The position numbers were made by a program, and so were the translations under genes. The notes beneath the pieces were generated by a model that did not search any database, was not told the origin of the DNA, and was given only the letters and a program-made list of their open reading frames with translations. A DNA stretch of 64,000 nucleotides from an uncultured delta proteobacterium (GTDB lineage: Bacteria; Desulfobacterota; Binatia; Binatales; Binataceae), in the NCBI GenBank assembly GCA_963794325.1, contig CAWCDG010000006.1, positions 64,001 to 128,000 on the forward strand, written 5' to 3'. Each line of letters begins with the position of its first letter. Position 1 is the first letter of the stretch. Shown here piece after piece: positions 1 to 51,702 of this stretch.

Positions 1-1
1 G

Positions 2-268
2 CTTTCGAAAGTCGCGGACCGCCTCAACGATATCCTACGCCGGGTTTCCGGCACCGAGAAATCCAGCGAGTTGCGTTTCATCATCTACACCAACGATGTA
101 GGCCAAATACTGCTGTCGCCTGAAATCGGCGTCCCGTTGCACGAGGCGTGGCTGTACAAAAACCCCGAAGCATTGGCCAGCGTTCGCAAAGGACTCCAGG
201 ATGCGGCTGAAGGGAAGGTTCACAGTCTGGGATCGTTTGCTGAATTTGCCGACGACGAAATCGACTAG
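2..268 (+). CDS. Putative antitoxin (AbrB-like/small TA partner), 5'-truncated by window edge
   Basis: Frame is open from base 2. C-terminal EAWLYKNPEALASVRKGLQDAAEGKV motif is typical of small antitoxins, and it lies directly upstream of a RelE-like gene. Confidence 0.65.
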   Translation, partial: LSKVADRLNDILRRVSGTEKSSELRFIIYTNDVGQILLSPEIGVPLHEAWLYKNPEALASVRKGLQDAAEGKVHSLGSFAEFADDEID

Positions 269-280
269 CAGGCGAAAATT

Positions 281-580
281 TTGGCTTCGTATAAGTTGGA
301 GTTCTCGGATGAAGCCAAAGGTCAACTCGAACGGCTCTATGCGGAACCTGCTTTATCGAAACGTCTTAAGTCAGTTCGAAAGGCTCTCGGTTGTCTCGAA
401 ATCAATCCTCGGCATCCGAGTCTTCAAACCCACAAGTTCCAGAGTCTGAAAGGACCACACCACGAGGAAGTGTTTGAGGCCTACGCTGAAAACCGGGTGC
501 CTGCCGCGTATCGAATTTTTTGGTACTACGGTCCCACGCAAGGCAAGATTACCGTTGTTGCGATCACGCCACATCCATAG
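281..580 (+). CDS. RelE/ParE-superfamily toxin
   Basis: 99 aa: YKLEFSDEA...NPRHPSLQTHK...AYRIFWYYGP...ITVVAITPHP. Confidence 0.7.
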   Translation: MASYKLEFSDEAKGQLERLYAEPALSKRLKSVRKALGCLEINPRHPSLQTHKFQSLKGPHHEEVFEAYAENRVPAAYRIFWYYGPTQGKITVVAITPHP

Positions 581-616
581 ATACGAATTGCGATTGGTGT
601 TCGCTTGCGAGCTTCC

Positions 617-1069
617 ATGAAAGCAAAGATCTCAGTGCTGATGCTCGTGGCAACGCTCGCTGCCTGCAAAACCGCGCCGCTTTGCCCTGCCGGCACCAAG
701 CAGATGGGCGAGGGACCGCCTAACGGCTCCGAAGTCGCATGCGTCAAGACCGTCAACGGCCAGGACATCAAAGAAGGACCCTACGTACTCTACCGCGACG
801 ACGGTTCGAAAATGATGGTCGGCGAATATCACGACGGCAAGCAGAGCGGCGAATGGACCATGTGGTACGACAACGGCCAGAAGAAATCGATCGACCATTA
901 CAAGGAAGGCGTGCAGGACGGCGAGCACACCGGCTGGTACACCAACGGCAAAATCGCCGCGATCGGCATGTACAAGAACGGCAAGCGCGAAGGCGTCTGG
1001 AAGCGATGGGACCCCGAAGGATTCAAGAACTGGGAAGAGACCTATAAGGACGATCAGAAAGTCTCATGA
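617..1069 (+). CDS. MORN-variant repeat lipoprotein (YwqK-like)
   Basis: Lipobox LAAC and repeated G.W..WY.NG.K...G.YK.G units. Confidence 0.8.
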   Translation: MKAKISVLMLVATLAACKTAPLCPAGTKQMGEGPPNGSEVACVKTVNGQDIKEGPYVLYRDDGSKMMVGEYHDGKQSGEWTMWYDNGQKKSIDHYKEGVQDGEHTGWYTNGKIAAIGMYKNGKREGVWKRWDPEGFKNWEETYKDDQKVS

Positions 1070-1566
1070 CGGCTGACCGGCCGACCAACGTGAACATCCT
1101 CGACGCGGACCTGTCCCGCGCCGATCATCAGGAGGCGCTCGTCACGATGCTCGACGCCTACATGCGCGATCCTATGGAAGGCGGCGAGCCACCGTCCGAG
1201 CGCGTCAAACGTGACCTGGTGCCGGGCCTGCGCGCGCATCCGGCGTGCTACGTATTCCTCGCCTGGCGCGACGGTACTCCGGTCGGGTTCACGATCTGCT
1301 TCCTGGGATTTTCGACCTTCCTCGCGCACCCGCTCATCAACATCCACGATATCTTCGTCGATTCTTCAGTGCGCGGCCGCGGTATCGGCGCGATGCTGCT
1401 CGAACGAATCGAGGCCAAAGCGCGCGAGCTGAATTGCTGCCGGATCACGCTCGAAGTGCGCGAGGACAATCGCGTCGCACGCGGTCTCTATCGCAAAGTC
1501 GGTTTCGATCGCGTCATGGTGGGCGAGACGCGCATCCCGCTCGAGTTCTGGCACAAACCGCTATGA
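1066..1566 (+). CDS. GNAT family N-acetyltransferase
   Basis: NIHDIFV...RGRGIG acetyl-CoA motif and LEVREDN..ARGLY..VGF. Confidence 0.9.
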   Translation: MTADRPTNVNILDADLSRADHQEALVTMLDAYMRDPMEGGEPPSERVKRDLVPGLRAHPACYVFLAWRDGTPVGFTICFLGFSTFLAHPLINIHDIFVDSSVRGRGIGAMLLERIEAKARELNCCRITLEVREDNRVARGLYRKVGFDRVMVGETRIPLEFWHKPL

Positions 1567-1571
1567 GTCAG

Positions 1572-1685
1572 TCAGGCTGAACGTCGCCGCACAACATTTT
1601 CGATCGTCTCGAGCAGCGTCTCTGGCTCAACCGGCTTGCGCGAAAGTTTATCGGCCTTGATTGGCTTGCTGATTTCACCGACCAC
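1572..1685 (-). pseudogene. C-terminal remnant of a response-regulator receiver domain
   Basis: Minus strand reads VVGEISKPIKADKLSRKPVEPETLLETIENVVRRRSA*, matching the receiver KP-alpha5 end. No N-terminal part is present. Confidence 0.45.
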
Positions 1686-1687
1686 CG

Positions 1688-1722
1688 AAAAATGCGAGGG
1701 ATCCCTAAACGGAATCCCTCGC
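1688..1722 (-). terminator. Rho-independent terminator of the VOC gene
   Basis: GCGAGGGATTCC-loop-GGGATCCCTCGC followed by ATTTTT on the minus strand. Confidence 0.7.
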
Positions 1723-1734
1723 TTCGATTTCAGA

Positions 1735-2178
1735 TTATTGCTTCATGGCTGCGGCCATCCGCTTCTGCATCTCGTCGGGAGTCGGATCCTCTTTGTGCGT
1801 GGCCAGCGACCAGGTATTTCCGAACGAGTCCTGCACAGTCGCCATCCGGTCGCCCCAGAACTGATCGGTCGGTTGACTCACCGATTTGGCGCCCGCGCCG
1901 GTCGCGCGCTTGTACATCGAGTCCACGTCACTGACGTACACGTAAAATGAACTGGTCGTAGGACTGCCCTGCGTGTGCTCACTGAGCATCAACCGCGAAT
2001 TGCCGATGCTCACCTCGGCATGCATCACGGTGCCGTCCGGACCCGGCATTCGCATGACCTCCTCGGCGCCCAACGCCGATTTAAGGAAATCGATCATCTT
2101 CGCGACACCCTTCACGTTAATGAACGGAGTGACGGTATGGTACCCGTCGGGAATCGGTTTGACTGCTTTGCTCGCCAT
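1735..2178 (-). CDS. VOC/glyoxalase (PhnB-like) protein
   Basis: KPIPDGYHTVTP...MHAEV.IG.S.LML...DQFWGDR...D.FGN.W. Confidence 0.9.
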   Translation of the reverse strand: MASKAVKPIPDGYHTVTPFINVKGVAKMIDFLKSALGAEEVMRMPGPDGTVMHAEVSIGNSRLMLSEHTQGSPTTSSFYVYVSDVDSMYKRATGAGAKSVSQPTDQFWGDRMATVQDSFGNTWSLATHKEDPTPDEMQKRMAAAMKQ

Positions 2179-2301
2179 GACGATTACTCCTCTCGCGATT
2201 TTGAGTTAGAGAAAATTGCTCAGCACCTCGAGCGAGGATCGATCCTCAAATATCGCTGATGCATTTCGAGCGCAACCGGAGCGCAGAGTGTGTTTTATCT
2301 T

Positions 2302-2338
2302 GTTCCCCTTCCCGCTCGGGAAGGGGTTGGGGTTAGGT
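2302..2338 (-). repeat. Repeat family A copy (reverse orientation)
   Basis: GTTCCCCTTCCCGCTCGGGAAGGGGTTGGGGTTAGGT. Confidence 0.85.
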
Positions 2339-2355
2339 ATTCTGACTCAACCGCC

Positions 2356-2498
2356 ATGCCTGTTACACCAAGTCGCAAAGTTACTCGTGGCGGGCGGGGG
2401 TTCGGGTCCTCAGAATTCCGAACGACGGGATGCTCGATGTTGAAGCAGCAGTCGATTACATCAGGGAGGCGCTGGGACGAAAGCAACCTAACCCCTAA
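2356..2498 (+). pseudogene. Internally deleted DUF559 (Vsr-like endonuclease) remnant
   Basis: ATG at 2356 gives MPVTPSRKVTR. A second frame (2391-2498) reads RAGVRVLRIPNDGMLDVEAAVDYIREALGRKQPNP*, resembling the DUF559 C-terminus G.RVLRF.N...E.V...I..AL. Confidence 0.55.
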
Positions 2499-2528
2499 CC
2501 CCTTCCCATAGTGGGAAGGGGAACCGGA
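2485..2528 (+). repeat. Repeat family A copy
   Basis: AACCTAACCCCTAACCCCTTCCCATAGTGGGAAGGGGAACCGG. Confidence 0.9.
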
Positions 2529-2545
2529 TAGATCGCACCGCCAAT

Positions 2546-3566
2546 TTACAGCGTTCGGCCGACCGCTTCCGCAAGCGGCTTCAGCGTCTTCATCAGATCG
2601 GCGAAGCGCGATGGCTTCAACTGCTGGGGGCCGTCGGATAGCGCGGTCTCCGGCTTCGGATGCACTTCGATGAGCAGGCCGTCGGCGCCCGCTGCGATCG
2701 CCGCCAAGCGCCATCGGGGCAACCATCTTGTAGATTCCCGTGCCGTGGCTCGGATCGACCAGCACCGGCAGATGGGTCCATTCCTTGAGCAGCGGCACCG
2801 CGTTCAGATCGAGCGTGTTGCGCGTCGCCGTTTCGAAGGTGCGAATCCCGCGCTCGCACAGCACGACGTTGGGATTGCCCTCCGACAGAATGTACTCCGC
2901 CGCCATCATGAACTCTTCGAGCTTCATCGACATGCCACGCTTGAGCAGCACCGGCTTCTTGATTCTTCCGAGCCGCCGTAGCAACGAGAAGTTCTGCGCA
3001 TTGCGCGCGCCGACTTGCAGCATGTCGGAATGCTCGGCGACCGCGTCGATATCGTGCGGATCCATGATTTCGGTGACCACCGGCAATCCGACGCGACGGC
3101 CGGCATGTTCGAGCAATACGAGCCCCTCGTTTTCCATTCCCTGGAATGAGTACGGCGACGTGCGCGGCTTGAACGCCCCACCGCGCAGCGCATGAGCGCC
3201 CGCTGCTTTGACCGCGTCGGCCGCAGCCTCGATTTGCGCCTCGCTTTCGATCGCGCACGGTCCCGCGATCACCGCGATTCGCTTGCCACCGATTTCCATG
3301 CCGCCAACTTTGATCCGCGATCCTTCGGGCCGCACTTCGCGCGACGCCAGCTTGAACGACCGCACCACCGGCATCACGCGCTCGACACCCGCCACCGATT
3401 CGAGATGCGTCAGTTGATGCTTCTCGCCGCGCTCGTCGCCCACGCAGGCGACCACGGTGCGCTCGACGCCGCGGATAATGTGCGCGTTGTAATCGAGATC
3501 CTCGACCATTTTAGCTACGGCCTGAATCTCGGCTTCGGTGGCATGCGCTTTCATTACGACGATCAA
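2546..3566 (-). CDS. aroF: DAHP synthase class I-beta with N-terminal regulatory domain; +1 frameshift near 2706
   Basis: IAGPCAIE, GGAFKPRTSPYSFQG, LLKRG, LCERGIRTFE and DPSHGTG motifs. The true C-terminus AAIAAGADGLLIEVHP..ALSDGPQQL continues in another frame to TAA at 2546. Confidence 0.9.
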
Positions 3567-3693
3567 TTTAAGAAAACCTCCAGTAGGCTGCTCTGCTCCT
3601 TGCGATGGAATGGGTGAGCGAAGTCTAGTAATCCTTGACTCTACAGCATGTCTTCATCGACCGGAATCGACTGCATACGAGAGGGATCAGGCT

Positions 3694-4044
3694 TTGATTG
3701 AGTCGTCATGCACCTGCGGAGCGGTTCGCCTTCAGATCGCCAGTCCCCCGACCGAGCTGACGGATTGCAACTGCTCTATCTGCCGGCGCTACCATGCGCT
3801 CTGGGCGTACTACTCGCTCAAGGATGTGACCGTTCCAAGCGGACTGACCGATACGTATATGCGAGACCCGAAAAAGCTCGAATTCCACCGCTGCAAAATT
3901 TGCGGATGCGTCACTCATTGGGCGCCGTTGGACAAGACGCGGGACCGCATGGGAGTGAATGCGCGTCTCATGTTGCCGGAGATTCTATTCCAGGTTCGGG
4001 TGCGCCATCTCGACGGCGCGGACACCTGGAAGTTTCTAGACTAG
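3694..4044 (+). CDS. GFA/CENP-V family zinc-binding protein
   Basis: CTCGAV, CNCSICRR, FHRCKICG, MGVNAR. TTG start chosen after GAGGG. Confidence 0.85.
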   Translation: MIESSCTCGAVRLQIASPPTELTDCNCSICRRYHALWAYYSLKDVTVPSGLTDTYMRDPKKLEFHRCKICGCVTHWAPLDKTRDRMGVNARLMLPEILFQVRVRHLDGADTWKFLD

Positions 4045-4047
4045 TGA

Positions 4048-4827
4048 TTGAAGGACGTAATTTTGCCAGCTAAGCTGCCTCATCGCCCCCTCAGGCTCAT
4101 TCATACTTCCGACGTTCATCTCGAGACCGACACGTTCGGATCCGGCGAACGCGGCATCGAGTTGCGCGACAAGGTCCGCACTGCCTTCAGCCGCGTCATC
4201 GATATAGCCAACGAGCGCGCGGCCGACATGCTGCTGATAGTGGGCGACCTCTTCGATTCGGCGCGCGTCACTGAAGAGGGCCTCGCCTTCGCGATGGGCG
4301 CGATAGCGCGGGCGCAGATGCCGGTCGTGATGATTCCCGGAAACCATGACGCGCACGACGAGCGATCGATCTACGCAGGCCTCGCGCCCGGCGTGTTACC
4401 CAGGAATCTGCACCTGATTCTCGAGCCCGAGGGTCGAACGATCGCTTTTCCCGATCTGGCGGCTCGTGTATGGGGCCGCGCGCTGGTCGAGCACACTCCG
4501 GACTACCGCCCGATGAGCGGCGTGCCGGAGCCTGAGGAAGGTCGCTGGAACATCGCGCTCGCCCACGGATTTTTCATGGAGGAAGGCGAGATCGAGCGAT
4601 CGTCGCCGATCACGCCCGCCGATATCGAGCGCTCGCGGTACGACTACGTCGCGCTGGGCCACGTGCACGTGCTGAGCGACGTGTCGCAAGGCGCGACGCG
4701 CGCATTTTATTGCGGCACCCCGGCGCCGCTCTATTCGAGCGAAAATTCGGGATGGGTGCTCTGGGTGAATTGCGTACCCGGCCAGCCCCTCTTAATCGAA
4801 CGCCTGATGGTTGCGCAGGAACGTTAA
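4048..4827 (+). CDS. Calcineurin-like metallophosphoesterase (SbcD/Mre11-like)
   Basis: HTSDVH, GDLFD, PGNHD, AHG and LGHVH motifs. Confidence 0.85.
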   Translation: MKDVILPAKLPHRPLRLIHTSDVHLETDTFGSGERGIELRDKVRTAFSRVIDIANERAADMLLIVGDLFDSARVTEEGLAFAMGAIARAQMPVVMIPGNHDAHDERSIYAGLAPGVLPRNLHLILEPEGRTIAFPDLAARVWGRALVEHTPDYRPMSGVPEPEEGRWNIALAHGFFMEEGEIERSSPITPADIERSRYDYVALGHVHVLSDVSQGATRAFYCGTPAPLYSSENSGWVLWVNCVPGQPLLIERLMVAQER

Positions 4828-4849
4828 ATAAAATGGCCGGTTACTTATT

Positions 4850-5266
4850 TCAGCGCCCGGAAGCCGCCTCGTCGCGACGCCTGAGCTCAGGATACAACTC
4901 CGACAGCCGTCGCCACATCCGCTCCAGCCCGTAGCTGTCGAAAGGCTCGACAATACATTCGAGCGCACCCTCTTTCAGATAAACTCGATTGTCTTCGGGC
5001 GCCTGCGACGCGCTGACGATCACAACCGACGTCTCCGGCGACTCGCGACGAATCATCCGGAACAGCGACAACGCGTCGAGCCCGCTCGCACTGCGCAACC
5101 CGGCGTCGAGCGTGATCACGTCGGGACTGCAAGTTCGGAACAGGTCGATTGTTTGCGTAACCGTCTCGGTTTCCGCCACCACCTGACATCCCCCGCATTC
5201 GAGATGATTGCGCATGATGTCGCGGGAAATCCCCGAGCTATCCGCAATGAGCACTCGTACTGCCAT
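4850..5266 (-). CDS. Stand-alone atypical response-regulator receiver
   Basis: VRVLIADSS...PDVITLD...VVIVS...EGALECIVEPF. Confidence 0.8.
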   Translation of the reverse strand: MAVRVLIADSSGISRDIMRNHLECGGCQVVAETETVTQTIDLFRTCSPDVITLDAGLRSASGLDALSLFRMIRRESPETSVVIVSASQAPEDNRVYLKEGALECIVEPFDSYGLERMWRRLSELYPELRRRDEAASGR

Positions 5267-5343
5267 CAGCGGCTCCTCCATGGACGAGCACTGCGCCAGC
5301 CCAGTCCCCAAGGCGTCACAGCTGCAATCCGGTTGACCTATTT

Positions 5344-5360
5344 AGCAAGGGCGGGGCCAA
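5344..5360 (-). promoter_or_regulatory. Sigma54 -24/-12 promoter for the receiver gene
   Basis: Minus strand TTGGCCCCGCCCTTGCT (GG-N10-GC), about 80 nt upstream of the start. Confidence 0.55.
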
Positions 5361-5600
5361 GCGATGTGGGCGTCGAGCGCGTGCGTCCGACTCTGGGCGG
5401 ACTAGCCAAATGCGGTTCGCGGTCACTTATTTGACTATTTGGGCGCGATCCGATCCGCCGCCTTCTGATCGCTATTCACGATCACCGTTGCACGCAAGTG
5501 ATTTGTAGCATCGCGGTGACATCGTTCAGCGCTCTAATCCCTCGCCCGCTACTTCACTGAAGAGGTTGGGTGCGAGTTCTGGCTTCGGTCACGAACCGCC

Positions 5601-5636
5601 AAAAAACAGCGGCGGAGCCTCGATGGCCCCGCCGCT
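5601..5636 (-). terminator. groEL terminator
   Basis: AGCGGCGGGGCC-loop-GGCTCCGCCGCT followed by GTTTTTT. Confidence 0.8.
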
Positions 5637-5664
5637 ACTATCAGTCTCAGATTTGTTCCTCAGG

Positions 5665-7332
<1,668 letters not shown>

Positions 7333-7375
7333 TCAGTGATTGAAGCTTGAACTTGTGATGAGCCAGCGCGAATGG

Positions 7376-7666
7376 CTACTCGATGATTCCCAGGATGTCG
7401 TCCTCGCGCAGGATCAACAGGTCTTCGCCCTCGAGCTTGAACTCGCTGCCCGAATATTTGCCGAATAGAATTTTGTCCCCAGCCTTAACTTCGACCGGGA
7501 TGAGCTTGCCGTGGTCGTCGTACTTGCCTTTGCCGACGGCGACGATTTTACCTTCCTGCGGCTTTTCCTTGGCGGTATCCGGGATGATGATCCCACCTTT
7601 GGTCCGCTCTTCTTCCTTGACGCGCTTGACGAGAATTCGATCTCCCAGTGGCCTTAATCCTTTCAT
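7376..7666 (-). CDS. groES: Co-chaperonin GroES
   Basis: [11 protein letters not shown]...[18 protein letters not shown]. Confidence 0.99.
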
Positions 7667-7732
7667 TGGGAACCAGCAGCCTCCTTGGCTTACGAAAAAT
7701 TGTTGCTAGACGGGACGATTCCCGCCGTCGGA

Positions 7733-7760
7733 AAGCTAATTACTATCCGGGTTTTGTCAA
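7733..7760 (-). promoter_or_regulatory. Sigma70-type groESL promoter
   Basis: Minus strand TTGACA-N16-TAGCTT. Confidence 0.6.
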
Positions 7761-7787
7761 TTGGCACTCGGAACGTCTGAGTGCTAA
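7761..7787. promoter_or_regulatory. CIRCE element (HrcA operator)
   Basis: TTGGCACTC-N9-GAGTGCTAA, one mismatch to consensus, abutting the -35 of groESL. Confidence 0.92.
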
Positions 7788-7878
7788 CGACATCTTAGCG
7801 GGAAATTGAAGAATTGCAAGTCCTGTGGATAAGGCTGTGGATGGGCTCTGATCGCGGATCAAAGAATCAAACATTTTT

Positions 7879-7911
7879 GGTTCCCCTTCCCATAGTGGGA
7901 AGGGGGACCGG
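7879..7911. repeat. Repeat family A, hairpin-only copy
   Basis: GGTTCCCCTTCCCATAGTGGGAAGGGGGACCGG. Confidence 0.8.
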
Positions 7912-7917
7912 AAAAAA

Positions 7918-9076
7918 TTAAGGCAGCGAGCCGCGCTCGGTTGCTCGAATTCCATACGGGCCGAATACCGACTGTCGGTATTCGTCGTCGCGCGAGGCTC
8001 GTAGCAACGCGTCGCGGTCGCGCAGGATTCGCAGTTGCGCGCGGACGTAGTCGACCTGGCGATCGACCTCATGCCTGCGGCCTTCCACGTACAGCGAGAA
8101 TGCGCTCGCGGACAAGTCACCGCTGCGCAAAGCGTTGTCGGCAGCGACGGCTGCGAGGCGCCCGGTCCGGAGCGCGAATTCGTTGCCCTGACCGGTTATC
8201 GGCGAGAGATATCCCGCCGCGTCTCCCACCAGCAGGATACGGTCGCGTGCGACGGCGCTGACGCGATATCCCAGCGGCGCCATCGACCATTGCCGGCCGA
8301 CTCGCGGCTCGCGCATGACGCGCTCGTAGAGCCATCGATCATGATTCTTTGCGACTGATTCGTAAAATTCGATCGCGCCCAGACGGTCGCTCTGTTTCTC
8401 CGCGAGATCCGCTTCGAGAATGTACCGATAGAGCCCCGAGTCGAATCCGCGAGCCGCTGATCATCGCGCCGCGCTCGCCGTAGAGATGACGATCCCAGGT
8501 ATGAAGCGGCGTGCCGTCGAAGGACTTGAAGAAAACTGCTACGCCGATCTGCGAGAACTCAGGATCCTCGGACTTGAGATTCAGCGCGCGCAGCGACGGC
8601 GCGTAGCGGCCGCCCGCATCGATCAACATGCGTGCCGAGTACCGCTTGAAGTCGGCCGTGATTGCGATTGCAGCGTCAGCTCGAAACTCCAGAGCGGTGA
8701 CTCGAGCGTTCCAGACGAGGCGCCCGCCAACTTCGACCAGCTTGCGGCGCAATGCGGCGTTGAATCCGCCGCGATCCACCTGCACGGGACTGACCGGCGT
8801 CGCAATCGGATGATAGGTCCACGACAGATCGGGATAGACATTACGAAAGCCGGTGATGCGGTCGAGGACCCAGTCACCTTCGAACTTGACGCCGAGCTGC
8901 GCGCATTCGTTCTGCGTCGGCACGACCATCACTTCGCCCGACGTGATATCCTCGCCGTCTTCGCGCTCCTTGCGCTCGAGCGCGAGCACGTCGTATCCGG
9001 CAGCGCTCAGCCTGATCGCAGAAGCACACCCGGCCGGTCCGGCTCCAATTACGATTACGTCAGCGTCGAGATGCAT
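7918..9076 (-). CDS. FAD-dependent oxidoreductase (geranylgeranyl reductase/halogenase-like); +1 frameshift near 8439
   Basis: GAGPAG Rossmann motif, DRGGF and IDAGG in the 5' frame; LLVGDAAG...PITGQG in the 3' frame. Removing one base joins them as ..RIRPGLYRYILE.. Confidence 0.85.
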
Positions 9077-9138
9077 GATGGTTCACCGGCTGGGATCAAG
9101 AGCACGGTGCGGGACAAGGCACAAGCGCCGCGTGGTTA

Positions 9139-9459
9139 CTAAAAAGAAATCGGATGCCCGAGTTGCTCGGATATCGTCTCCGCCAGCCGCGGGAATAATT
9201 CGTGGCCGTCCTTGTCGTCGATCCAGAGACCGCGCGCCGGGTCCCAAGTGTAATGGAATCCGTGCGAGCCGGCGGCGAGCCACATCTGTTTCATCTGCGA
9301 TTGGCGCGACAGGATAAACTTCGCGCCGTCTGCGAACTCGATCGTCACGACGCCGTCGGCGGTGGTGTAATCCACTTCGTCAGGATCGAGGTCCTCGAGC
9401 CACTTCGCGACCTTGCTCAAGGCGGCATCGGAGCGTTCGCGAAATTCGTTATCGTCCAT
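9139..9459 (-). CDS. cyaY: Frataxin-like iron donor CyaY
   Basis: Acidic N-terminal helix, DGVVTIEF.DG.KFILSRQ...QMWLAA..GFHY.W. Confidence 0.88.
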   Translation of the reverse strand: MDDNEFRERSDAALSKVAKWLEDLDPDEVDYTTADGVVTIEFADGAKFILSRQSQMKQMWLAAGSHGFHYTWDPARGLWIDDKDGHELFPRLAETISEQLGHPISF

Positions 9460-9484
9460 GGACGGGGATTGTATCAACGCGAGG

Positions 9485-9592
9485 AACCTAACCCCTAACC
9501 CCTTCCCGCGCGGGAAGGGGAACCAGAAGGGTTTCGTTGGAAGCGCGCCGTCCTATCCCCCTCGCCCCCTTTCCGATGCGGAAAGGGGGAAC
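9485..9592 (+). repeat. Two tandem family A copies (9485-9524 canonical, 9552-9592 variant)
   Basis: AACCTAACCCCTAACCCCTTCCCGCGCGGGAAGGGGAACC and CCTATCCCCCTCGCCCCCTTTCCGATGCGGAAAGGGGGAAC. Confidence 0.85.
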
Positions 9593-9686
9593 AGATCAGA
9601 AAATTCACAGGAGTGTCATCACACCCTGTCCCCCTCAAGAACCTCAGAGCGAAAGGTCGTCCTCGACATTTCGCGATTTCTTATCA

Positions 9687-9712
9687 CTGGGTGCAGGGGT
9701 CACCCCTGCCGC
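9687..9712 (+). repeat. Repeat family B copy
   Basis: CTGGGTGCAGGGGTCACCCCTGCCGC; the same sequence occurs at 19286 and at 31945 (reverse). Confidence 0.85.
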
Positions 9713-9770
9713 GGAAGCGTGAAACCCGCGGAGGGTTTCACATTTAATAAAGTGATTTACCCTTCCCGAT

Positions 9771-10049
9771 TCACCGCTGCGGGCCTTTCTTTCTCATCTC
9801 TTCGTCGCGGTAGCGTTTGTACAGAAGCGTCCATTCGTTGGAGCCTTCGACGATGCCGCGTTTGATCGAATTGATCTTGCGCCGCACGATCGCGTCGATC
9901 TCATCGCCCTGCTCGTTGAATTGGGCGACGATTTCGCGCGCCTGCCGGAGTGCGAGCGGGAAGTTTGAGATCTCGGCGAGTCCCTCATCGCGCAATTTTG
10001 CCAGCGACTCGCGCGCCAGGAACAGGACTCGTGCTTCGGTGAGCTTCAT
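9771..10049 (-). CDS. DUF507 family protein
   Basis: IDAIVRRKI.S.KR.IVEGS.EW..LY..Y..EE motif. Confidence 0.8.
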   Translation of the reverse strand: MKLTEARVLFLARESLAKLRDEGLAEISNFPLALRQAREIVAQFNEQGDEIDAIVRRKINSIKRGIVEGSNEWTLLYKRYRDEEMRKKGPQR

Positions 10050-10052
10050 TTT

Positions 10053-10328
10053 TTAGAGCGTGAAGTTTTTCTTCTCAGCCAGGCGTTGGCGAATCAAGTT
10101 CCGGAGGCGCGTGACGTCGAGGCGTGTGTCGCGGCGCGCTTCTGCCTCCGCCATTTTGTCGGCCTCTTCGTCAATTTGCGCTTCGGTCTCGAAATTCTCC
10201 GACATCAGCTCAGTCACGCACGCGACCAGTTCCTTGACGTCGGCCTTGGGCTTGATAACGCCGCGATCGATCAGCCCGTTCACGAGATGCGTCGCGAGCG
10301 CGTCGATCTGAGCTTCTCGAATCGCCAT
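10053..10328 (-). CDS. DUF507 family protein (paralog)
   Basis: E..IDEEA.KM...IRQRLAEKKNFTL; tandem with the preceding gene. Confidence 0.75.
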   Translation of the reverse strand: MAIREAQIDALATHLVNGLIDRGVIKPKADVKELVACVTELMSENFETEAQIDEEADKMAEAEARRDTRLDVTRLRNLIRQRLAEKKNFTL

Positions 10329-10422
10329 ACGATTACAGCTTGACGGGATCGAGTGTGTTTTGTCAAAAGCGTTTCTGCGATCAGGCGAGGAATATCCGGT
10401 GTGTGTCGAATGAAAGCCGCCG

Positions 10423-10537
10423 ACCTAACCCCTAACCCCTTCCCATAGTGGGAAGGGGAACCGGAATGAAAAAATCGCTCGCTCCCATAACGCGATTGCT
10501 CCCCCTTTCCTCGAGGGAAGGGGCCGGGGGTTAGGTT
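10423..10537. repeat. Inverted pair of family A copies (10423-10464 +, 10500-10537 -)
   Basis: ACCTAACCCCTAACCCCTTCCCATAGTGGGAAGGGGAACCGG ... CCCCCTTTCCTCGAGGGAAGGGGCCGGGGGTTAGGTT. Confidence 0.85.
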
Positions 10538-10564
10538 GCTCGAATCCAGCGCCTCCCCGGCAGC

Positions 10565-11359
10565 TCAATGCGGGGGCTTCTTGGCGTTCTGCTTGTCCTG
10601 CTCTTCCTTGTAGACCTCGTCCATTTTTGGCTCGAGGGTCTCGTAGAATTCCTTGATATGGCCGATACTCGATCCGAGATCGCCGGGGAAGTAGCGCAGC
10701 AGCGAGGTCTGATCCGGGCGCGCCATGCCGGAGCGCGCGCATACTTCGATCTCGCCTGACGGATCGATCGAGATCCGGATGTCGTCCTCGAATTTGAAAA
10801 TCCGCGAGGTGTAGACGCATTCGAGGGTGTAGTTGCTCGGGCTGGATTTGACGATTCTCCATCCGCCGAGAGAATTGACGACGTCGGTGGAGAGTTGAAA
10901 CAGCTTCTCGCGCGAGATTCCCGGAAAGCTGCGGCGAATCAATTCAGGAAAGACGTCGTCGATCGGCGCGGGCTCCGCCTTCGACAGATCATTTCGCGTG
11001 TCTTGAATCCCGTCGGACGGTTCTTTCTTGACGCGCTTGTGCGGTGCGGCCGCGGCAGCAGTCGGCGGTGGCGCCGGCGGATTTTCCATCACGCAGGTCA
11101 CCGAGCCCGAGCCGGTCGCGCTGGCAGCGGCGGAGTTCTTGGTCAGGAACCGTTCGACCCGTTGCCCGAAGCCGGGCCGCTCGAAAATTGTTTCGTTGTT
11201 CAGGATCATCGTGATTCCCGCCGCGGCAATCCCCACCGCGATGAAAAAAACGGCGAGCCGGATGATCAGCCCGAGCAAGCGGCGCAGGATCGGAATGAAG
11301 ATGAATGCCGCGAGAACGACAACCGCAACGATGACTTCAACCGGCGTTAACCCCATCAT
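10565..11359 (-). CDS. Membrane protein with DUF1499-like C-terminal domain
   Basis: Two N-terminal TM helices; C-terminal SRIFKFEDDIRI...RSG...GDLG motif. Confidence 0.65.
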   Translation of the reverse strand: MMGLTPVEVIVAVVVLAAFIFIPILRRLLGLIIRLAVFFIAVGIAAAGITMILNNETIFERPGFGQRVERFLTKNSAAASATGSGSVTCVMENPPAPPPTAAAAAPHKRVKKEPSDGIQDTRNDLSKAEPAPIDDVFPELIRRSFPGISREKLFQLSTDVVNSLGGWRIVKSSPSNYTLECVYTSRIFKFEDDIRISIDPSGEIEVCARSGMARPDQTSLLRYFPGDLGSSIGHIKEFYETLEPKMDEVYKEEQDKQNAKKPPH

Positions 11360-11443
11360 AAATTCCCGAGGGGAATCGTTAGCTGTTTATATGGCGGTGG
11401 CGCAAGTGGGTCGCGGATCGATCTGCGCCGATGGAGCCCAAAG

Positions 11444-11525
11444 AACCTAACCCCTAACCCCTTCCCGAGCGGGAAGGGGGACCGGATTGTTGGGGGTAAC
11501 CTCTTCCCGAGCGGGAAGGGGAACC
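11444..11525 (+). repeat. Two tandem family A copies
   Basis: AACCTAACCCCTAACCCCTTCCCGAGCGGGAAGGGGGACCGG, then TAACCTCTTCCCGAGCGGGAAGGGGAACC. Confidence 0.85.
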
Positions 11526-11603
11526 AGTAAGAAAACCGGCGCGAACCTGATTCGGATCGCGCCGGTCATTCAGCAAGTTGTGAGATTTTTCGTTTTTCGT
11601 TGT

Positions 11604-13475
11604 TTACGCGGGGGCGCCGGCGAATCCCTCGGCGCCGTCGCCGCGGAGGATTGCGTCGAAGCGCTTGCCGCCGAGATAGAAGCGGCGCGCTTCGTCGTCG
11701 GTGACTGCGGCGCGGCGGACGTCGCGGCGGCGAATCGGCCAGATTCCGCCGACCATCGGATGCCGTCCCTGGCGATAGCTGAAGAAATAGTACGTGAACT
11801 GCCGGAGCACGCCCTTGCGCGCTTCCGCGTCGAGCCCTCGGCCGGCGCATACGGTGAACATCGTGTGCAGGAAGCGCGGGATCGAATAGAAGCCCGTGTA
11901 TGCGTCGCGATACGCGCCGAGCCAGCTCTCCTTGTCGAGCTTGTCATGCTTCAGCGTGACGTGCTGCGAGTCGAGCTGGTTGAAATCCCAATCGATGATG
12001 GCGCCTTCCTTGGTGAAGCGCACCTGGTCCTCGGTGCCCGGCAGCGGCGTCATGATGAAGAACGACACAATGTCGAAGCCGATTTTTTTCAGGGTCGCCG
12101 CGGCGACGCGTCCGCAATCGGGACCGTCGAACGGAAATCCCAGCATGTAGCCCGCATGCACCGAGACGCCGACCTTGTGCCAGTTCTCGACGACCCGCCG
12201 GTACTTGTCGATCACGTGCGCGCGCACCGCTTCGAGCTTGCCCTTGCCCTGGCGATCGTCGGTGTTCTGATACTTGGTCGCAAAGTTCAGGTTGTCGGGA
12301 TTGAGCGACTCGATCCCGACGAATGCCTGGTAGCATCCCGCGGCCGCGGCGAGCTCGGTGAAGCGCTTGCTCCGCCGATGCTTGGCGGTTTCGGTCTCGC
12401 CCTCGGCGACGTTCGCGTAGCATGACGCGTCGACGTCCACCTGCATCATGAAGGAGAGCTTCGGATACTCCTTCTTCACTTCGACCAGCCCGGTGAGAAT
12501 TTCTTCCCATCGCGGCGATCGGAAAAAGTCGTCATCAACCAGGAACAGCGACTCGATGCCGTGATGCCGGCATGCGTCGCGCACCCAGCTCACCACCGCG
12601 TCCGGCTCGCGCGAGCGCATCGTGCGGCCCATCACGTTCTTCACGCTGCAGTACGAGCATGTGAACGGGCATCCGCGCGAGGTGTCGAGCGTGGTCATGG
12701 TGTCGTTGAAAAATCGCGTGAGATAACGATCGTCGAGTACCGGCAGCAGCGACTCGGTGATCAGCGGAACGATAATGTCTTCCTGGCCGGTCTTGGCACG
12801 AATTCCCTGCGTGACCGTGTAGTGGAGGCGCAGCTCTCCACGTAGGAAGTCCTCGACGATATCGCCCCAAATATTTTCGGCCTCGCCGACCACGGTCGTG
12901 ACGCCGCATTCGTTCAGGAACTTGCACGAGTCGGGAAAGCCGCTGACGTGGAAGCCGCCCATCATCGTGGGGACGCCCTCGGCGACGAACTGAAGCGCGA
13001 GATCGCGTCCGCGCGGATACTGATTCGATTGCACGCCTGCCAGTCCAATCAGGAGCTCGACGCCGTCTTCGCGTGCCTTGTCTTTAATCGCCGTGATTGT
13101 CTCGGGGCTGACTATGCCGTCGCAGATCTCGTCCCAAATGACCGTCTCGAGCCGGACATTGCGCTCGACTGCGTAGCGCTTGTTGAAGGCCTCGTTCAGC
13201 GCCGTCATCACGGTCAAAGTGTTGTTTGGCTGGACGCCGTAGCGGAAATATTGGACAAAGCCGTCCTCGTCGTATCGGGAGGGCTTGATGAAATAGACGC
13301 GGATAGTACGACAAGGCTCGGGCTTCATCGCCGTGTCTGCGGTTGCCCCCTCGCGTGCAGTCAGCTGAAGCTTTGCGCCCGGACGGTCGCTGCCGTAGCG
13401 ATTAGTCCCCAACAACCAGTATAGGACGCTCGCCGCGAAGACGAGGAATGCGCCAAGAAATACAAGAAATACCAT
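11604..13475 (-). CDS. Radical SAM protein (B12-binding/BchE-like class) with N-terminal membrane anchor
   Basis: SRGCPFTCSYC, VVGEAE, FLVDDDF and TPLPGT motifs; the first 22 aa are hydrophobic. Confidence 0.88.
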   Translation of the reverse strand: MVFLVFLGAFLVFAASVLYWLLGTNRYGSDRPGAKLQLTAREGATADTAMKPEPCRTIRVYFIKPSRYDEDGFVQYFRYGVQPNNTLTVMTALNEAFNKRYAVERNVRLETVIWDEICDGIVSPETITAIKDKAREDGVELLIGLAGVQSNQYPRGRDLALQFVAEGVPTMMGGFHVSGFPDSCKFLNECGVTTVVGEAENIWGDIVEDFLRGELRLHYTVTQGIRAKTGQEDIIVPLITESLLPVLDDRYLTRFFNDTMTTLDTSRGCPFTCSYCSVKNVMGRTMRSREPDAVVSWVRDACRHHGIESLFLVDDDFFRSPRWEEILTGLVEVKKEYPKLSFMMQVDVDASCYANVAEGETETAKHRRSKRFTELAAAAGCYQAFVGIESLNPDNLNFATKYQNTDDRQGKGKLEAVRAHVIDKYRRVVENWHKVGVSVHAGYMLGFPFDGPDCGRVAAATLKKIGFDIVSFFIMTPLPGTEDQVRFTKEGAIIDWDFNQLDSQHVTLKHDKLDKESWLGAYRDAYTGFYSIPRFLHTMFTVCAGRGLDAEARKGVLRQFTYYFFSYRQGRHPMVGGIWPIRRRDVRRAAVTDDEARRFYLGGKRFDAILRGDGAEGFAGAPA

Positions 13476-13673
13476 AACTAGATCCTCTGCTTTTGGTTCC
13501 TAACCCCTGCAACCCAACCTGCCCATTATACCCGAACGTGGGGGGAAGTATCTAACCGCTCGGTCAGACACCAGTAAACAAATCCCAAACAGGAAAGTCA
13601 ACCCGTCATGATTGGACCACGCTTATAGCTCGAATGTCCAGAAATTAGTCGAGATAATCGGTACTGGGGGTAC

Positions 13674-13733
13674 CTAGCGGTACATTTCGACTAGATTGAT
13701 TAAGCCGAGGTCGCGGTAGCGCTCCTACCAGGT
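13674..13733 (-). repeat. Duplicate of the ptsP 3' end (att-like direct repeat of 14016-14074)
   Basis: Encodes ERYRDLGLINLVEMYR*, identical to the ptsP end but with synonymous changes; one indel at the junction. Confidence 0.9.
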
Positions 13734-13798
13734 TAGCTGACGATGCGATCATATTGGCTGTGATCGCCGATCCAGAACGGAGATGCGAAGTGCCTCAA
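13733..13798 (-). pseudogene. Internally deleted ParE/RelE-like toxin
   Basis: TTG start overlaps the antitoxin stop. Reads MRHFASPFWIGDHSQYDRIVS*, a toxin N-terminus (HFASP.FW) fused to its C-terminus (FWIG.H..YD). Confidence 0.75.
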
Positions 13799-13995
13799 AA
13801 CTCAGTGAATTTGCCCACCGCATGGGCGCGAAGGGCTTCATCGGCAAGTGAGTCGAGTTTCCCCTCTTTTGCGTCCCGCTCGATCTGGCGATCCCATGCA
13901 GCTGCATCAAACTCAGCGAACCACTGCCGAAACTTTGTAAGTTCCTCCGCGGAGAGACCGGAGACTTTCTTCTCGATGGCTTCGAGTTTACTCAT
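13795..13995 (-). CDS. Putative antitoxin (addiction-module type)
   Basis: 66 aa: IEKKVSGLS.EEL..FRQWF.EFD...WDRQIERD.K.GKLD.LA.EAL. Confidence 0.75.
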   Translation of the reverse strand: MSKLEAIEKKVSGLSAEELTKFRQWFAEFDAAAWDRQIERDAKEGKLDSLADEALRAHAVGKFTEF

Positions 13996-14015
13996 TGAAG
14001 AGACGATACCACCTT

Positions 14016-16391: not shown

Positions 16392-16514
16392 TGATAAGGT
16401 CTCAGCAGCGGCGCAGAAATTTTATCGGATCGAGAGCGTCGCGGACAATGCCGCGGGTTGAATATCTCAGAGACTAACGAGTTGAGTTGCCGTTGGATGG
16501 TCCTTCGTGTGGTT

Positions 16515-16662
16515 CCCTCGCCCACGCGGGGAGAGGGTTAGGGTGAGGGACATCTGTGCGGCGCGAATGTCTGGTGCGCCGCGCATTTGGGAACTTCGGA
16601 AAATTCGGTCCCTCACCCGCCGCCCGAAGACGAGCGGCGACCTCTCCCCTCGTAGGGCGAGA
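16515..16662. repeat. Outward-facing pair of BoxC-like purine/pyrimidine palindromes
   Basis: CCCTCGCCCACGCGGGGAGAGGGTTAGGGTGAGGG ... CCCTCACCCG..GACCTCTCCCCTCGTAGGGCGAGA. Confidence 0.7.
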
Positions 16663-16803
16663 CAACGCAAAAGGATATCGCTTGATCCGCATCGCGAACG
16701 AGAAACCACGACGCTATGTATTTGCCGCGGGGCTCATTTCCTTTCAAAATTCAACGTGGGCGAAATGAAAGGAAACCGCTTTTATTTCGTGGGCTTCTGT
16801 GTG

Positions 16804-17544
16804 TCAATTGGCGGGCTGTGTCAGCTCGAATGGCACGAGCGCGCTCTTCAGCAGGCCACGGCCGGCGCGACATCGGCGCAATCGAATCGCATCGATCAGG
16901 CCGCGCTCATCCTTGATTGGGCCGTCGAGCAGCGTCGTCACGCATCCTACTGAGCCTGCGGAATGCGAGTCCGAACCAGCGACCTCGGCAATCCCGAGAT
17001 GCCGCGCGACCTTCAGCGCGAAGACGTTCTCATCCTCGCCGCATGCGCCGTTCAGCACTTCGATGGCGTCGACCAGTTCGAAGATTCTGAGCTTGGCCGC
17101 GCGATCGGGATACGTCGGATCGATCGGTTCCGAATCCGGGTTGATGAACGAAAAACGCGGGTCGAGCTTGTAGCGGAACGGATGATTTGCGATCAGGATT
17201 CCGCCTTCGAGATCGATCACGCGCCGCAGCTCGGCCAGCTTGTAGATTCCGCCGACGTACCGCTCCAGCCCGAACGCGCCGACGTGTCCCATGTCGGTCG
17301 TCACTTCCATCCCGCGCAGAAAGATCACGCCCGAGTCGCCGGCCATCGCGGCGATCTCACGCGAGTCCCACATATTGTCGTGCTCGGTGATGCAGACCGC
17401 GCCGATTCCGATCGCACGCGCGCGCTCGACGAGGTCCTTCGGCGCCAGGTTCGAATCCGAGCTGCCACGATTGGTATGGAGATGCAGGTCTACGCTGAAG
17501 TAGGGCCCCGCCAGCTGCGGGTGCCCGCTTCGTGAATCCGCCAT
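16804..17544 (-). CDS. PHP domain phosphoesterase
   Basis: DLHLHT, ITEHD, NHPFR, AIEVLNG and GSDSH motifs. Confidence 0.9.
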   Translation of the reverse strand: MADSRSGHPQLAGPYFSVDLHLHTNRGSSDSNLAPKDLVERARAIGIGAVCITEHDNMWDSREIAAMAGDSGVIFLRGMEVTTDMGHVGAFGLERYVGGIYKLAELRRVIDLEGGILIANHPFRYKLDPRFSFINPDSEPIDPTYPDRAAKLRIFELVDAIEVLNGACGEDENVFALKVARHLGIAEVAGSDSHSAGSVGCVTTLLDGPIKDERGLIDAIRLRRCRAGRGLLKSALVPFELTQPAN

Positions 17545-17560
17545 TTGCGACGCGCCGCGA

Positions 17561-18115: not shown

Positions 18116-18283
18116 TTTATTCCACTCGCATTCGCACGAACAGTCAAAGGTCCATGCAGGTTAGTCCGACAGTCCTGTATGGAAGTATTCGAGGCGTTGC
18201 CAATCCGCAAGTGATTTCGTGATCTCCTTGAAAGCCCTCTAAGGGGCGCTGCGCGGTCTCAAAAACCGGAACCGGCTTCGCGT

Positions 18284-18408
18284 GCGCGAAGCTGTCCGAG
18301 GCCCTTCCTCCCGTCGCTAACGCTCCCGTCGTCAGGGTGACACAAAGCGCGAAGTTGTCCGGAAATCTCCTTCCTGCCGCTCGCGTTGCTCGCTTCGTCA
18401 GGATGACA
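18284..18408 (-). repeat. Two tandem TGTCA(T/C)CCTGAC-type repeat units (family C)
   Basis: Minus strand TGTCATCCTGACGAAGCGAGC..GAAGG..GGACAACTTCGCGC, then TGTCACCCTGACGACGGGAGC..GAAGG..GGACAGCTTCGCGC. Confidence 0.7.
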
Positions 18409-19186: not shown

Positions 19187-19211
19187 ATCAGTCCTCTGGT
19201 CGATCCGTACG

Positions 19212-19324
19212 ACCTAACCCCTAGCCCCTTCCCATAGTGGGAAGGGGAACCGGATTTGGGAGAGTCGAGCCACCGCCGTCCTCATTGGGTGCAGGGGTCA
19301 CCCCTGCCGCCCGCCGCGCAGGCG
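19212..19324 (+). repeat. Family A copy (19212-19253) plus family B copy (19286-19324)
   Basis: ACCTAACCCCTAGCCCCTTCCCATAGTGGGAAGGGGAACCGG and TGGGTGCAGGGGTCACCCCTGCCGCCCGCCGCGCAGGCG. Confidence 0.88.
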
Positions 19325-19334
19325 ATTATTCTCC

Positions 19335-42175: not shown

Positions 42176-42214
42176 AACCTAACCCCTAACCCCTTCCCTC
42201 GAGGGAAGGGGAAC
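42176..42214 (+). repeat. Repeat family A copy
   Basis: AACCTAACCCCTAACCCCTTCCCTCGAGGGAAGGGGAAC. Confidence 0.9.
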
Positions 42215-51660: not shown

Positions 51661-51702
51661 AACCTAACCCCTAACCCCTTCCCTCGAGGGAAGGGGAACC
51701 GG
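51661..51702 (+). repeat. Repeat family A copy
   Basis: AACCTAACCCCTAACCCCTTCCCTCGAGGGAAGGGGAACCGG. Confidence 0.9.

Follow-up and report, generated by a model that had tools for sequence, protein, structure and literature searches.

What kind of element lies between the glyoxalase/VOC family gene and the aroF-like gene of this uncultured delta proteobacterium, and can the nuclease gene of which it holds a remnant account for the repeats that enclose it? The stretch of 64,000 nucleotides presented above, here called the window, is part of contig C6 of a source genome (G000) of 4.45 Mb and 85% completeness, whose other contigs are referred to as C1, C4 and so on. Window positions 2298-2528 hold a broken copy of a cassette in which a DUF559 (Pfam PF04480) endonuclease gene is placed between two inverted units of a short repeat, family A. 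Each family A unit consists of a 9-bp hairpin followed by a G-rich tail, and at the window element both tails point inward, with about 146 bp between the two units. The left unit reads TCTTGTT-CCCCTTCCC-GCTC-GGGAAGGGG-TTGGGGTTAGGT, and the right unit (2486-2528) is its inverted copy. A preliminary description of this DNA had recognized two opposed family A repeats around a 146-bp core, and these are indeed found at 2305-2338 and 2486-2521. It had also called the pair outward-facing, which is true of the hairpin ends, whereas the G-rich tails are directed toward the core. Its reading of the core, with an ATG start, an end in a second frame and a stop inside the right repeat, agrees with the ATG at 2356 and the stop codon at 2496-2498 within the right tail.

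The fragment enclosed by the repeats had been described as DUF559-like. Its second frame (2391-2498) translates to RAGVRVLRIPNDGMLDVEAAVDYIREALGRKQPNP* (35 residues), for which the preliminary description had proposed a Pfam search. This search gives 0 families at E up to 10, PF04480 included, and the two open reading frames (ORFs) spanning the element have no Pfam match; we attribute the blank on the fragment to its shortness. In contrast, tblastn against its own genome ties the fragment to exactly two DUF559 genes, in both cases to the C-terminus: C1:5795-5902 (55.6% identity over 36 aa, E 6e-8) and C4:950578-950655 (61.5% over 26 aa, E 3e-5). The first of these genes (C1:5795-6181) encodes a protein of 129 aa, P0002, which scores 116 bits against PF04480 (cut-off 20.6), and the fragment aligns to its residues 94-129 (E 9e-7). 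From these alignments, we take the window fragment to be a remnant of a DUF559 member and not itself a member, in line with the earlier claim.

DNA alignment to other cassettes places a deletion junction at about 2391/2392. What the window copy retains, besides the leader, is the first 36 nt of the gene and roughly its last 107 nt; the approximately 247 nt between them are missing. Its predicted N-terminus can be compared with that of the C1 gene (MTRGTKITRGQNV), of a frameshifted gene on C4, C4b (MACSRKIVRGQNV), and of a cassette at locus L018 (ATGCCCATTAACCCCGACGGAAAAATCATACGC). The deleted portion includes the nuclease core segment VDF ... IELDG..H, within which the catalytic residues presumably lie. 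This segment, taken from alignments to the protein structures 3hrl and 3r3p, is present in the C1 cassette and in that of the related genome G021. Because about 247 nt including the whole catalytic core are lost, the window copy would code for nothing functional.

A PF04480 search of the genome returns six intact genes, one frameshifted gene and two weak fragments. The intact C1 gene and the frameshifted C4b gene (C4:950566-950938) both lie between two inverted family A units whose tails point at the gene. Their ATG comes about 20 nt after the tail, and their stop or last codons fall inside the 3' tail; like the window remnant, the C1 gene ends within the tail, with QPNP*. These are full-length DUF559 genes with the same flanking repeats, which the preliminary description had suggested looking for. 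A fourth remnant adjoins the family A unit at C4:1027514-1027596. The other five DUF559 genes are about 40% identical to P0002 and have no family A repeat nearby. All seven genes (7/7) are flanked by inverted hairpin repeats, and for six of them the repeats score above every one of 200 random 380-bp segments (maximum 26.3 bits); at the seventh, C3a, there are only two collinear 12-mers, below the control maximum, which represent a fifth set of flanking repeats.

The clade of the gene matches the family of the repeat: C1 and C4b have family A, C5a and C6a family B, C9a family C, and C4a a fourth family. Family B is CCTCTCCCG-TCG-GGAGAGG-ATTTAA-GGAGAGGGAC, to which a second GC hairpin is added, and has arms of 72-78 nt; the family C ends around C9a are about 70 nt long, and the inverted repeat at C4a measures 125 nt. 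C5a and C6a are 85-90% identical over about 590 bp, a likeness that stops at the repeats, and their loci are unrelated; we read them as two copies of one cassette at unrelated loci. Family C occurs as eight uniform doublets of about 270 bp at eight loci, plus single ends. The ends of the doublets are matched by the inverted repeats flanking the DUF559 gene at C9:156498-157101, and the doublets look like an amplified non-autonomous derivative. Repeat framing is the rule for DUF559 genes and not a peculiarity of family A.

The VOC-aroF region was searched in 41 related genomes, and 20 loci were inspected. The closest relative, G021, whose flanks are 88-92% identical, carries an intact 0.5-kb cassette with family A ends in the same VOC-aroF spacer; its gene is oppositely oriented, and the coding part is 78% identical to the window remnant. 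In G009 and in G024 (an unpublished genome), VOC directly adjoins aroF with neither repeat nor gene, giving two of the empty sites that had been proposed as a check. VOC is absent from this place in most other genomes. Ten close relatives fetched from public metagenome-assembled genomes (MAGs) have a hairpin on both sides of the gene in 10/10 cases, with proteins 69-88% identical; none of these ten shows VOC/aroF synteny. A protein with 71% identity carries the name of Candidatus Binatus. Clustering by outside flanks assigns 14 clade-R cassettes (clade R being at least 64% identical to P0002) to six genomic sites, four of which hold at least two of the 14 copies; two of these four show both cassette orientations. 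The view of the window element as an internally deleted, non-autonomous derivative of a repeat-DUF559-repeat cassette, as the preliminary description had it, is well supported by sequence comparison, because the C1 and C4 cassettes share its flanks, all ten relatives have a hairpin on either side of the gene, G021 has an intact copy at the same site, G009 and G024 have empty sites, and about 247 nt are missing.

The site of the C1 cassette was classified in 30 genomes of the genus. It is empty in ten and carries the full cassette in two, a single unit with tail in seven (several of them degenerate), a tail-less palindromic hairpin with both outer ends in one (G003), a 470-bp insert with three hairpins in one, and other inserts in nine. 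The single unit of G024 at this site retains about 30 nt of the 3' end of the gene. These states indicate that gain and loss affect the cassette as a whole, and that its decay takes several routes. In the same convergent spacer, G145, G159 and G009 (loci L087, L090 and L094) have a different repeat of 150-190 bp with CTAACAAGTTCTAACAGGGACGAAGTCCCGC and GGGTGCAGGGGTCACCCCTGC. The C1-site spacer is a hot spot for several repeat families.

Family A extends far beyond its cassettes. In the window there are 9 instances of the hairpin core pattern, versus 0 expected (100 shuffles), and in the genome 212. Allowing one mismatch per arm yields 273 hairpins, 214 of them with tail (99 plus-oriented and 115 minus-oriented); the exact hairpin with tail is present in 168 copies, and the reversed control has 0. 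The consensus of the 214 oriented copies is CCCCTTCCC-N4-5-GGGAAGGGG-TTA-GGGGTTAGG, with an outer end TCCGGTT or GCGATTGTT. According to rough gene calls based on ORFs and GC3 (G+C at third codon positions), 201 of the 214 units are intergenic in a genome that is 21% intergenic, and 64 lie in convergent and 22 in divergent spacers, for which the background space is equal. The tail faces the 3' end of a gene 110 times and the 5' end 91 times. The 59 tail-less hairpins were considered as common scars or targets and rejected as such, since an outer end on each side is present in only about two of them; the majority either stand first in a double-hairpin unit or are members of another family. Double family A units are many (G000:C2:638306-638421, G000:C5:71667-71744 and others) and consist of a tail-less hairpin, a TTACTCC..AATCCGGTT link and a tailed hairpin.

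The E. coli repeat BoxC has been known since the early 1990s, and PIT and TMECO are later descriptions of it. TMECO has the consensus CCCTCNCCC-N3-6-GGGNGAGGG-N3-GGGNGAGGG (Holder et al. 2015, PMC4666352), and the same paper describes TMECO as forming a triplex in vitro, as always intergenic and as a mark of variable regions. Its main text reports no transposase or integrase remnant near TMECO, leaves origin and mechanism unanswered, and traces BoxC to the envM paper (its reference 46). The label of REP/MITE (repetitive extragenic palindromic / miniature inverted-repeat transposable element) system in the preliminary description missed this published class (PMC4666352), and its tentative preference for DUF559 over a RAYT (REP-associated tyrosine transposase) is taken up below. 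With its block architecture, intergenic location, balance between strands and occurrence as single or inverted tandem units, family A appears to belong to the BoxC/PIT/TMECO class of intrastrand triplex motifs, and may form a triplex.

The only PF04480 gene of E. coli K-12, ycjD, lies between sapF and fabI, which we take to be envM, and its last codons and stop are inside a BoxC-like hairpin. About 60 nt 3' of ycjD, a remnant duplicates the 3' end of the gene, first over more than 20 identical bases and then with a diverged continuation, and a canonical BoxC follows about 100 nt past the remnant (L110:16200-16470, equal to NC_000913.3, 1351199-1351469). The RefSeq annotation of E. coli K-12 has no repeat feature at the two BoxC sites compared. 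The two-purine-block part of the motif is present 26 times in the K-12 chromosome versus once in the reversed control. The fabI-ycjD-sapF stretch (L110:15900-17000) is found in one piece in 3346 of 5426 E. coli genomes. In many others the fabI-side match ends at query position 264, about 40 nt before BoxC, and therefore a strain-variable region starts beside the repeat.

An association between DUF559 and BoxC/PIT/TMECO was not found in the searched literature. The words 'endonuclease' and 'ycjD' have 0 occurrences in the main text of PMC4666352, the supplements of which, with all TMECO loci and perhaps the fabI-ycjD locus, are outside this check. We found nothing on repeats in the DUF559 literature searched and no link to repeats in the passages covered of the ycjD literature; on triplex motifs and BoxC, PMC4666352 alone proved relevant. 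Within the searched literature, RAYT/REPIN is not joined with Vsr or homing, nor PF04480/Vsr-like proteins with MITE, terminal inverted repeats or selfish elements.

The framing of DUF559 genes by such motifs recurs in other phyla. Among 36 loci with P0002 relatives, 20 exceed the control maximum for flanking inverted repeats (10/10 close relatives and 10/26 others). A hairpin plus G-rich tail at most 170 nt upstream, in the order hairpin-tail-gene, is present in 27 of the 36 loci versus 8 of 391 control windows from the same loci. Outside the close relatives this upstream motif is seen at 17 of 26 loci, from Cyanobacteria, Chloroflexota, Armatimonadota, Fibrobacter, Spirochaetota and Proteobacteria; the hairpin is of the pyrimidine-arm type, with stem sequences that vary by lineage. 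By inspection, the tail gives a GGAG-type ribosome-binding site a few bases before the ATG in the cyanobacterial and Chloroflexota relatives. Two motif copies in opposite orientations, 1.8-1.9 kb apart, are found in four of five cyanobacterial genomes. In a Xenococcus MAG (L023:128-1381), a reverse-transcriptase gene (RVT_1, E 5e-12) is located directly upstream of the hairpin, tail and DUF559 gene; co-location of UG26 reverse transcriptases with YcjD-like proteins is described in a preprint (10.1101/2021.12.02.470933).

P0002 matches Protein Data Bank (PDB) entry 3hrl (E 1e-14), entry 3r3p, a 'Mobile intron protein' (E 8.5e-5), and the PADLOC model 'HEase' (E 1.9e-7), and scores below the model cut-off of NF007294 (YcjD family). 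Table 1 of PMC3424549 groups VSR, DUF559 and DUF2726 in one clade, to which a group I intron homing endonuclease also belongs. The DUF559 protein VsrA of Caulobacter is reported to cause an SOS response if a cytosine methyltransferase is absent (PMC12907096). 'DUF559 domain-containing protein' is reported as enriched among predicted invertible genes, with an odds ratio of 14.3 (PMC9881135), which fits the inverted ends and flipped copies seen here.

To ask what spreads the repeats, we compared 47 genomes of the genus, in which the number of exact family A copies ranges from 0 to 168. Among the matches listed, a clade-R gene is present in 18 of the 23 genomes with at least 13 exact repeats, in 1 of the 10 with 1-11 repeats and in 0 of the 14 with none. 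The RAYT-type domain Y1_Tnp (PF01797) is found in 13 of the 47 genomes; of the 10 with the most repeats, 4 have it and six lack it, G148 (147 copies, 3 contigs) and G124 being among these six. In the source genome, no family A hairpin lies within 3 kb of the two PF01797 matches (C4:286943 and C4:486520), and the 214-copy profile of family A has no GTAG or CGTC tag of the RAYT type (as defined in PMC3733652). Given that Y1_Tnp is patchy among repeat-rich genomes and not adjacent to family A, RAYT was ruled out as the agent. The proposal in the preliminary description that DUF559 rather than RAYT spreads family A therefore holds for its second half. DUF559 is a plausible candidate for spreading the repeats, on evidence that is correlative: the match between gene clade and repeat family, the co-occurrence in the genus and the MITE-like derivatives. 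G154 and G050 are counter-examples.

A mechanism has to accommodate the homology of the remnant, the architecture of the cassette, its presence or absence as a unit, its occurrence at several unrelated sites and its two orientations at one site. We tentatively favor, at somewhat below an even chance, a selfish cassette of about 0.5 kb, in which a 129-codon gene for a Vsr-like PD-(D/E)XK endonuclease (DUF559) is bounded at either end by an inverted terminal repeat of about 48 bp with the BoxC/PIT-type succession of a pyrimidine block, a loop, a purine block, TTA and a second G-rich block. In its favor we count, besides the features just named, the repeats around all seven DUF559 genes, the match of gene clade and repeat family, the amplified family C doublets, the motif upstream of relatives in other phyla, the ycjD locus of E. 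coli K-12, the co-occurrence in the genus and the likeness of the fold to homing endonucleases. The nuclease would recognize its own terminal repeat, as a hairpin, cruciform, triplex or sequence, and nick or cut there; repair or copying of the break would then move or copy the cassette and generate deletion derivatives and single units. Family A repeats would be proliferated cassette ends, and recombination between the two inverted ends would flip the gene.

Several observations weigh against the selfish cassette. Most family A units are single, and there are only 11 inward-facing pairs within 3 kb among the 214 oriented units, two of them around DUF559. In the 214-copy profile, conservation stops about 5 nt past the tail and is flat beyond, and single units therefore show no visible descent from a cassette; the idea that they carry DUF559 remnants was rejected on this profile, the sole case being that of G024 at the C1 site. 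No target-site duplication is seen at the VOC-aroF, C1 or C5a/C6a sites. Cassettes occupy conserved sites across genomes, which implies mostly vertical descent. Among the matches listed, no clade-R gene is present in G154 (92% complete, 20 contigs), which has 74 exact repeats, or in G145, G013, G023 and G020, with 13-46 repeats; G050, from another genus, has 7 repeats and no match to a cognate gene. The co-occurrence counts ignore kinship, and the two repeats around every gene enter the repeat count by construction. Five cyanobacterial genomes have only 1-5 exact copies of the motif each, and the gene is therefore not always a cause of expansion. The authors of the VsrA study read that protein as a mismatch-repair nuclease (PMC12907096). 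Finally, a 129-aa hydrolytic nuclease, an activity that is itself predicted, would be unable to carry out strand transfer alone.

An extension of the selfish-cassette reading, which we consider rather unlikely as a whole, is that DUF559/YcjD-type nucleases would be the missing enzymes of the BoxC/PIT/TMECO repeats of hundreds of bacterial genomes. These would then form a new class of nuclease-driven mini-elements, analogous to RAYT/REPIN and based on a PD-(D/E)XK fold plus three-block DNA, with the E. coli BoxC by ycjD as a proliferated end.

An alternative that we judge improbable is that BoxC-type repeats pre-exist independently and that DUF559 is a homing-type gene that cuts them and is copied in without making new repeats. 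The relation of the fold to homing endonucleases (3r3p and the PADLOC HEase) would suit such a parasite, as would the two orientations at one site, for the hairpin core is palindromic and insertion in either orientation is therefore expected under homing. The same holds for the C1 site, where some genomes have a single unit or a tail-less hairpin in place of the cassette, for repeat-rich genomes without the gene such as G154, and for the few repeats of Cyanobacteria despite the gene. However, the empty VOC-aroF sites of G009 and G024 lack any repeat, and the genome has only about two tail-less hairpins with both outer ends as possible symmetric targets. Each DUF559 clade also has its own repeat family, some with long ends (70-125 nt) that seldom or never occur solo, and this resembles element ends more than host targets, and the single internal structure of the family C doublets points to copying of a derivative.

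A further reading, somewhat more doubtful still, leaves the movement to another agent, be it a RAYT, a different transposase acting in trans, or side reactions of replication and repair at triplex or hairpin DNA, with DUF559 as a passenger or a gene prone to being bracketed. The genome does have two Y1_Tnp genes, the placement of family A is REP-like in its intergenic and convergent bias (201/214; 64 versus 22), some repeat-rich genomes lack a cognate gene, and the main text of PMC4666352 reports no mobility gene near TMECO in E. coli. Against another mover stand the lack of Y1_Tnp in 6 of the 10 repeat-richest genomes, the distance of the two Y1 genes from family A, the missing GTAG/CGTC tag and, by eye, the long ORFs without evident transposase in 8 of 9 non-DUF559 inward-facing pairs examined, and the match of DUF559 clade and repeat family across phyla would be hard to explain for a passenger. 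Quite improbable, finally, is a host function, with DUF559 as a domesticated structure- or mismatch-specific nuclease and the repeats as cis-regulatory or insulating sequences (mRNA-end hairpins or an operator), both now immobile, since the conserved cassette sites, the in vivo DNA-damage phenotype of VsrA linked to cytosine methylation (PMC12907096) and the ribosome-binding site in the tail of cyanobacterial and Chloroflexota relatives, all of which would suit it, are set against a single genome that has seven paralogs and five families of ends, duplication to unrelated loci, presence or absence as a unit, decay that is frequent (besides the window copy, three remnants and one copy with a frameshift) and amplified gene-less doublets, which are marks of selfish DNA.

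The remaining features of the window are listed with the element in Table 1. The flanking aroF-like gene is split between two frames by one extra base near 2706 (window 2700-2710), where it reads GCCGCCAAGCGCC and 4/4 relatives read GCCGCCA-GCGCC; the gene is a true pseudogene, or else the extra base is an assembly error. Another hairpin-plus-tail family, CCCCTTTCC-loop-GGAAAGGGG followed by GTGAGGGGGATAGGAC, is present at window 9566-9588 and about 20 more places (e.g. G000:C2:205227), and no cognate DUF559 gene was identified for it in this 85%-complete genome. Rfam, searched with window 1-20000 at E up to 1, has no match at the element; a sub-threshold Antizyme_FSE hit at 16499-16555 on the minus strand (32.8 bits, gathering threshold 40) is most likely due to chance.

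Table 1. Features of the window element, its surroundings and related repeats (window positions unless a contig is given).
Feature	Position	Strand	Basis or remark
Left terminal repeat, outer end TCTTGTT (family consensus TCCGGTT)	2298..2304	+	214-copy oriented profile; information rises ~7 nt before the hairpin
Left hairpin CCCCTTCCC-GCTC-GGGAAGGGG (pyrimidine block, loop, purine block)	2305..2326	+	Single-stranded DNA fold -10.1 kcal/mol, z -3.6
Left G-rich tail TTGGGGTTAGGT (consensus TTAGGGGTTAGGTT, 1 base missing); putative third block of triplex-type motif	2327..2338	+	Profile; comparison with the TMECO consensus given in PMC4666352
Short leader, tail to start codon	2339..2355	+	Aligned with C1, C4b, G021 and L018 cassette leaders
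DUF559 N-terminal remnant, ATG at 2356, 12 codons MPVTPSRKVTRG	2356..2391	+	Compared with C1, C4b and L018 starts
DUF559 C-terminal remnant, other frame, ends ..GVRVLRIPNDGMLDVEAAVDYIREALGRKQPNP*	2392..2498	+	tblastn; DNA alignment
Right G-rich tail, ACCTAACCCCTAA on + strand; contains stop TAA 2496-2498	2486..2498	-	Sequence
Right hairpin CCCCTTCCC-ATAGT-GGGAAGGGG	2499..2521	-	Fold -11.7 kcal/mol, z -3.9
Right terminal repeat, outer end AACCGGA	2522..2528	-	Sequence; 214-copy profile
Glyoxalase/VOC family gene, flanking	1735..2178	-	PF00903, E 1e-13
DAHP synthase gene (aroF-like), flanking, in two frames	2546..3566	-	PF00793 positions 14-205 in one frame, 220-266 in the other
Family A hairpin without tail, outer-end motifs on both sides (TGGTT...GACCGGA)	7883..7905	.	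Pattern search
Solo family A unit, tail on left (C6:73499)	9499..9520	-	Pattern search
Solo family A unit; + oriented unit 43 nt later at ~10502	10436..10458	-	Pattern search
Solo family A unit, then degenerate second hairpin, double-hairpin variant (C6:75500)	11458..11479	-	Pattern search
Solo family A unit	19225..19247	-	Pattern search
Solo family A unit, TCGA-loop subfamily, outer end AACAATCGC	42190..42211	-	Pattern search
Solo family A unit	51675..51696	-	Pattern search
Family C doublets	G000:C2:160188-160411, C2:178757, C2:287656, C4:788028, C4:1075999, C4:1941430, C7:90173, C9:51995		~70-nt ends

What is new here is the framing of DUF559 genes by BoxC-type motifs, in 7/7 genes of this genome, in several phyla and at ycjD of E. 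coli K-12. The link may explain the origin of an old class of repeats and gives a candidate enzyme for it. If it is true, DUF559, a very common domain of unknown function, would acquire a biological role, its enrichment among predicted invertible genes may be explained, and a second, unrelated class of enzyme would enter into the kind of repeat-host relationship known from REP and RAYT. In annotations, short ORFs running through these repeats should be labelled as cassette remnants, and so should fragments such as that in the window.

Comparison with known systems brings out both shared and distinct features. Like REP/REPIN-RAYT systems, the cassettes have a low-copy nuclease gene between two inverted hairpin repeats, mostly vertical at fixed loci, together with tens to hundreds of intergenic repeat copies and a population size that varies greatly between related genomes. 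They differ in having a PD-(D/E)XK hydrolase rather than an HUH tyrosine transposase, no GTAG/CGTC tag, mostly single units rather than REPIN doublets, a third G-rich block and several gene/repeat pairs per genome. With insertion sequences (IS), MITEs and mobile insertion cassettes they share terminal inverted repeats (48-125 bp) around one small gene, deleted copies such as that in the window and amplified gene-less doublets (family C, 8 copies). Unlike these, they have no DDE, serine or tyrosine transposase, DUF559 being the only gene, and no target-site duplication was seen at the sites compared; in family A, single ends far outnumber paired ends.

With the EDxHD/Vsr-like homing endonucleases (I-Bth0305I, PDB 3r3p; PMC3239194, PMC2677866) the cassettes share the fold family and a small selfish nuclease gene, but they lie outside any intron, intein or split or target gene, in intergenic spacers and with inverted repeats of their own, and the empty VOC-aroF sites of G009 and G024 show no conserved target motif. 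E. coli Vsr and Caulobacter VsrA (PMC12907096) have the same Vsr-like PD-(D/E)XK domain, and VsrA, a DUF559 protein, is reported to damage DNA in vivo; multiple repeat-framed paralogs and decaying copies, in contrast, are not expected of a repair gene. BoxC/PIT/TMECO differs from family A in its stem sequence, in number (23 copies are reported for E. coli MG1655 in PMC4666352, versus 168 exact and 214 loose copies of family A) and in that family A forms the terminal repeats of DUF559 cassettes, whereas no mobility gene is reported near TMECO in that paper's main text. The two are alike in their three blocks, and the TTA second loop of family A is also that of TMECO type A. Both have conserved stems and variable loops, are intergenic without strand bias, stand as single units or inverted tandem pairs and are found at variable regions, and by inspection eight of the nine third-block positions of family A fit purine-motif pairing (G.G:C or T.A:T) with the mirror of block 2.

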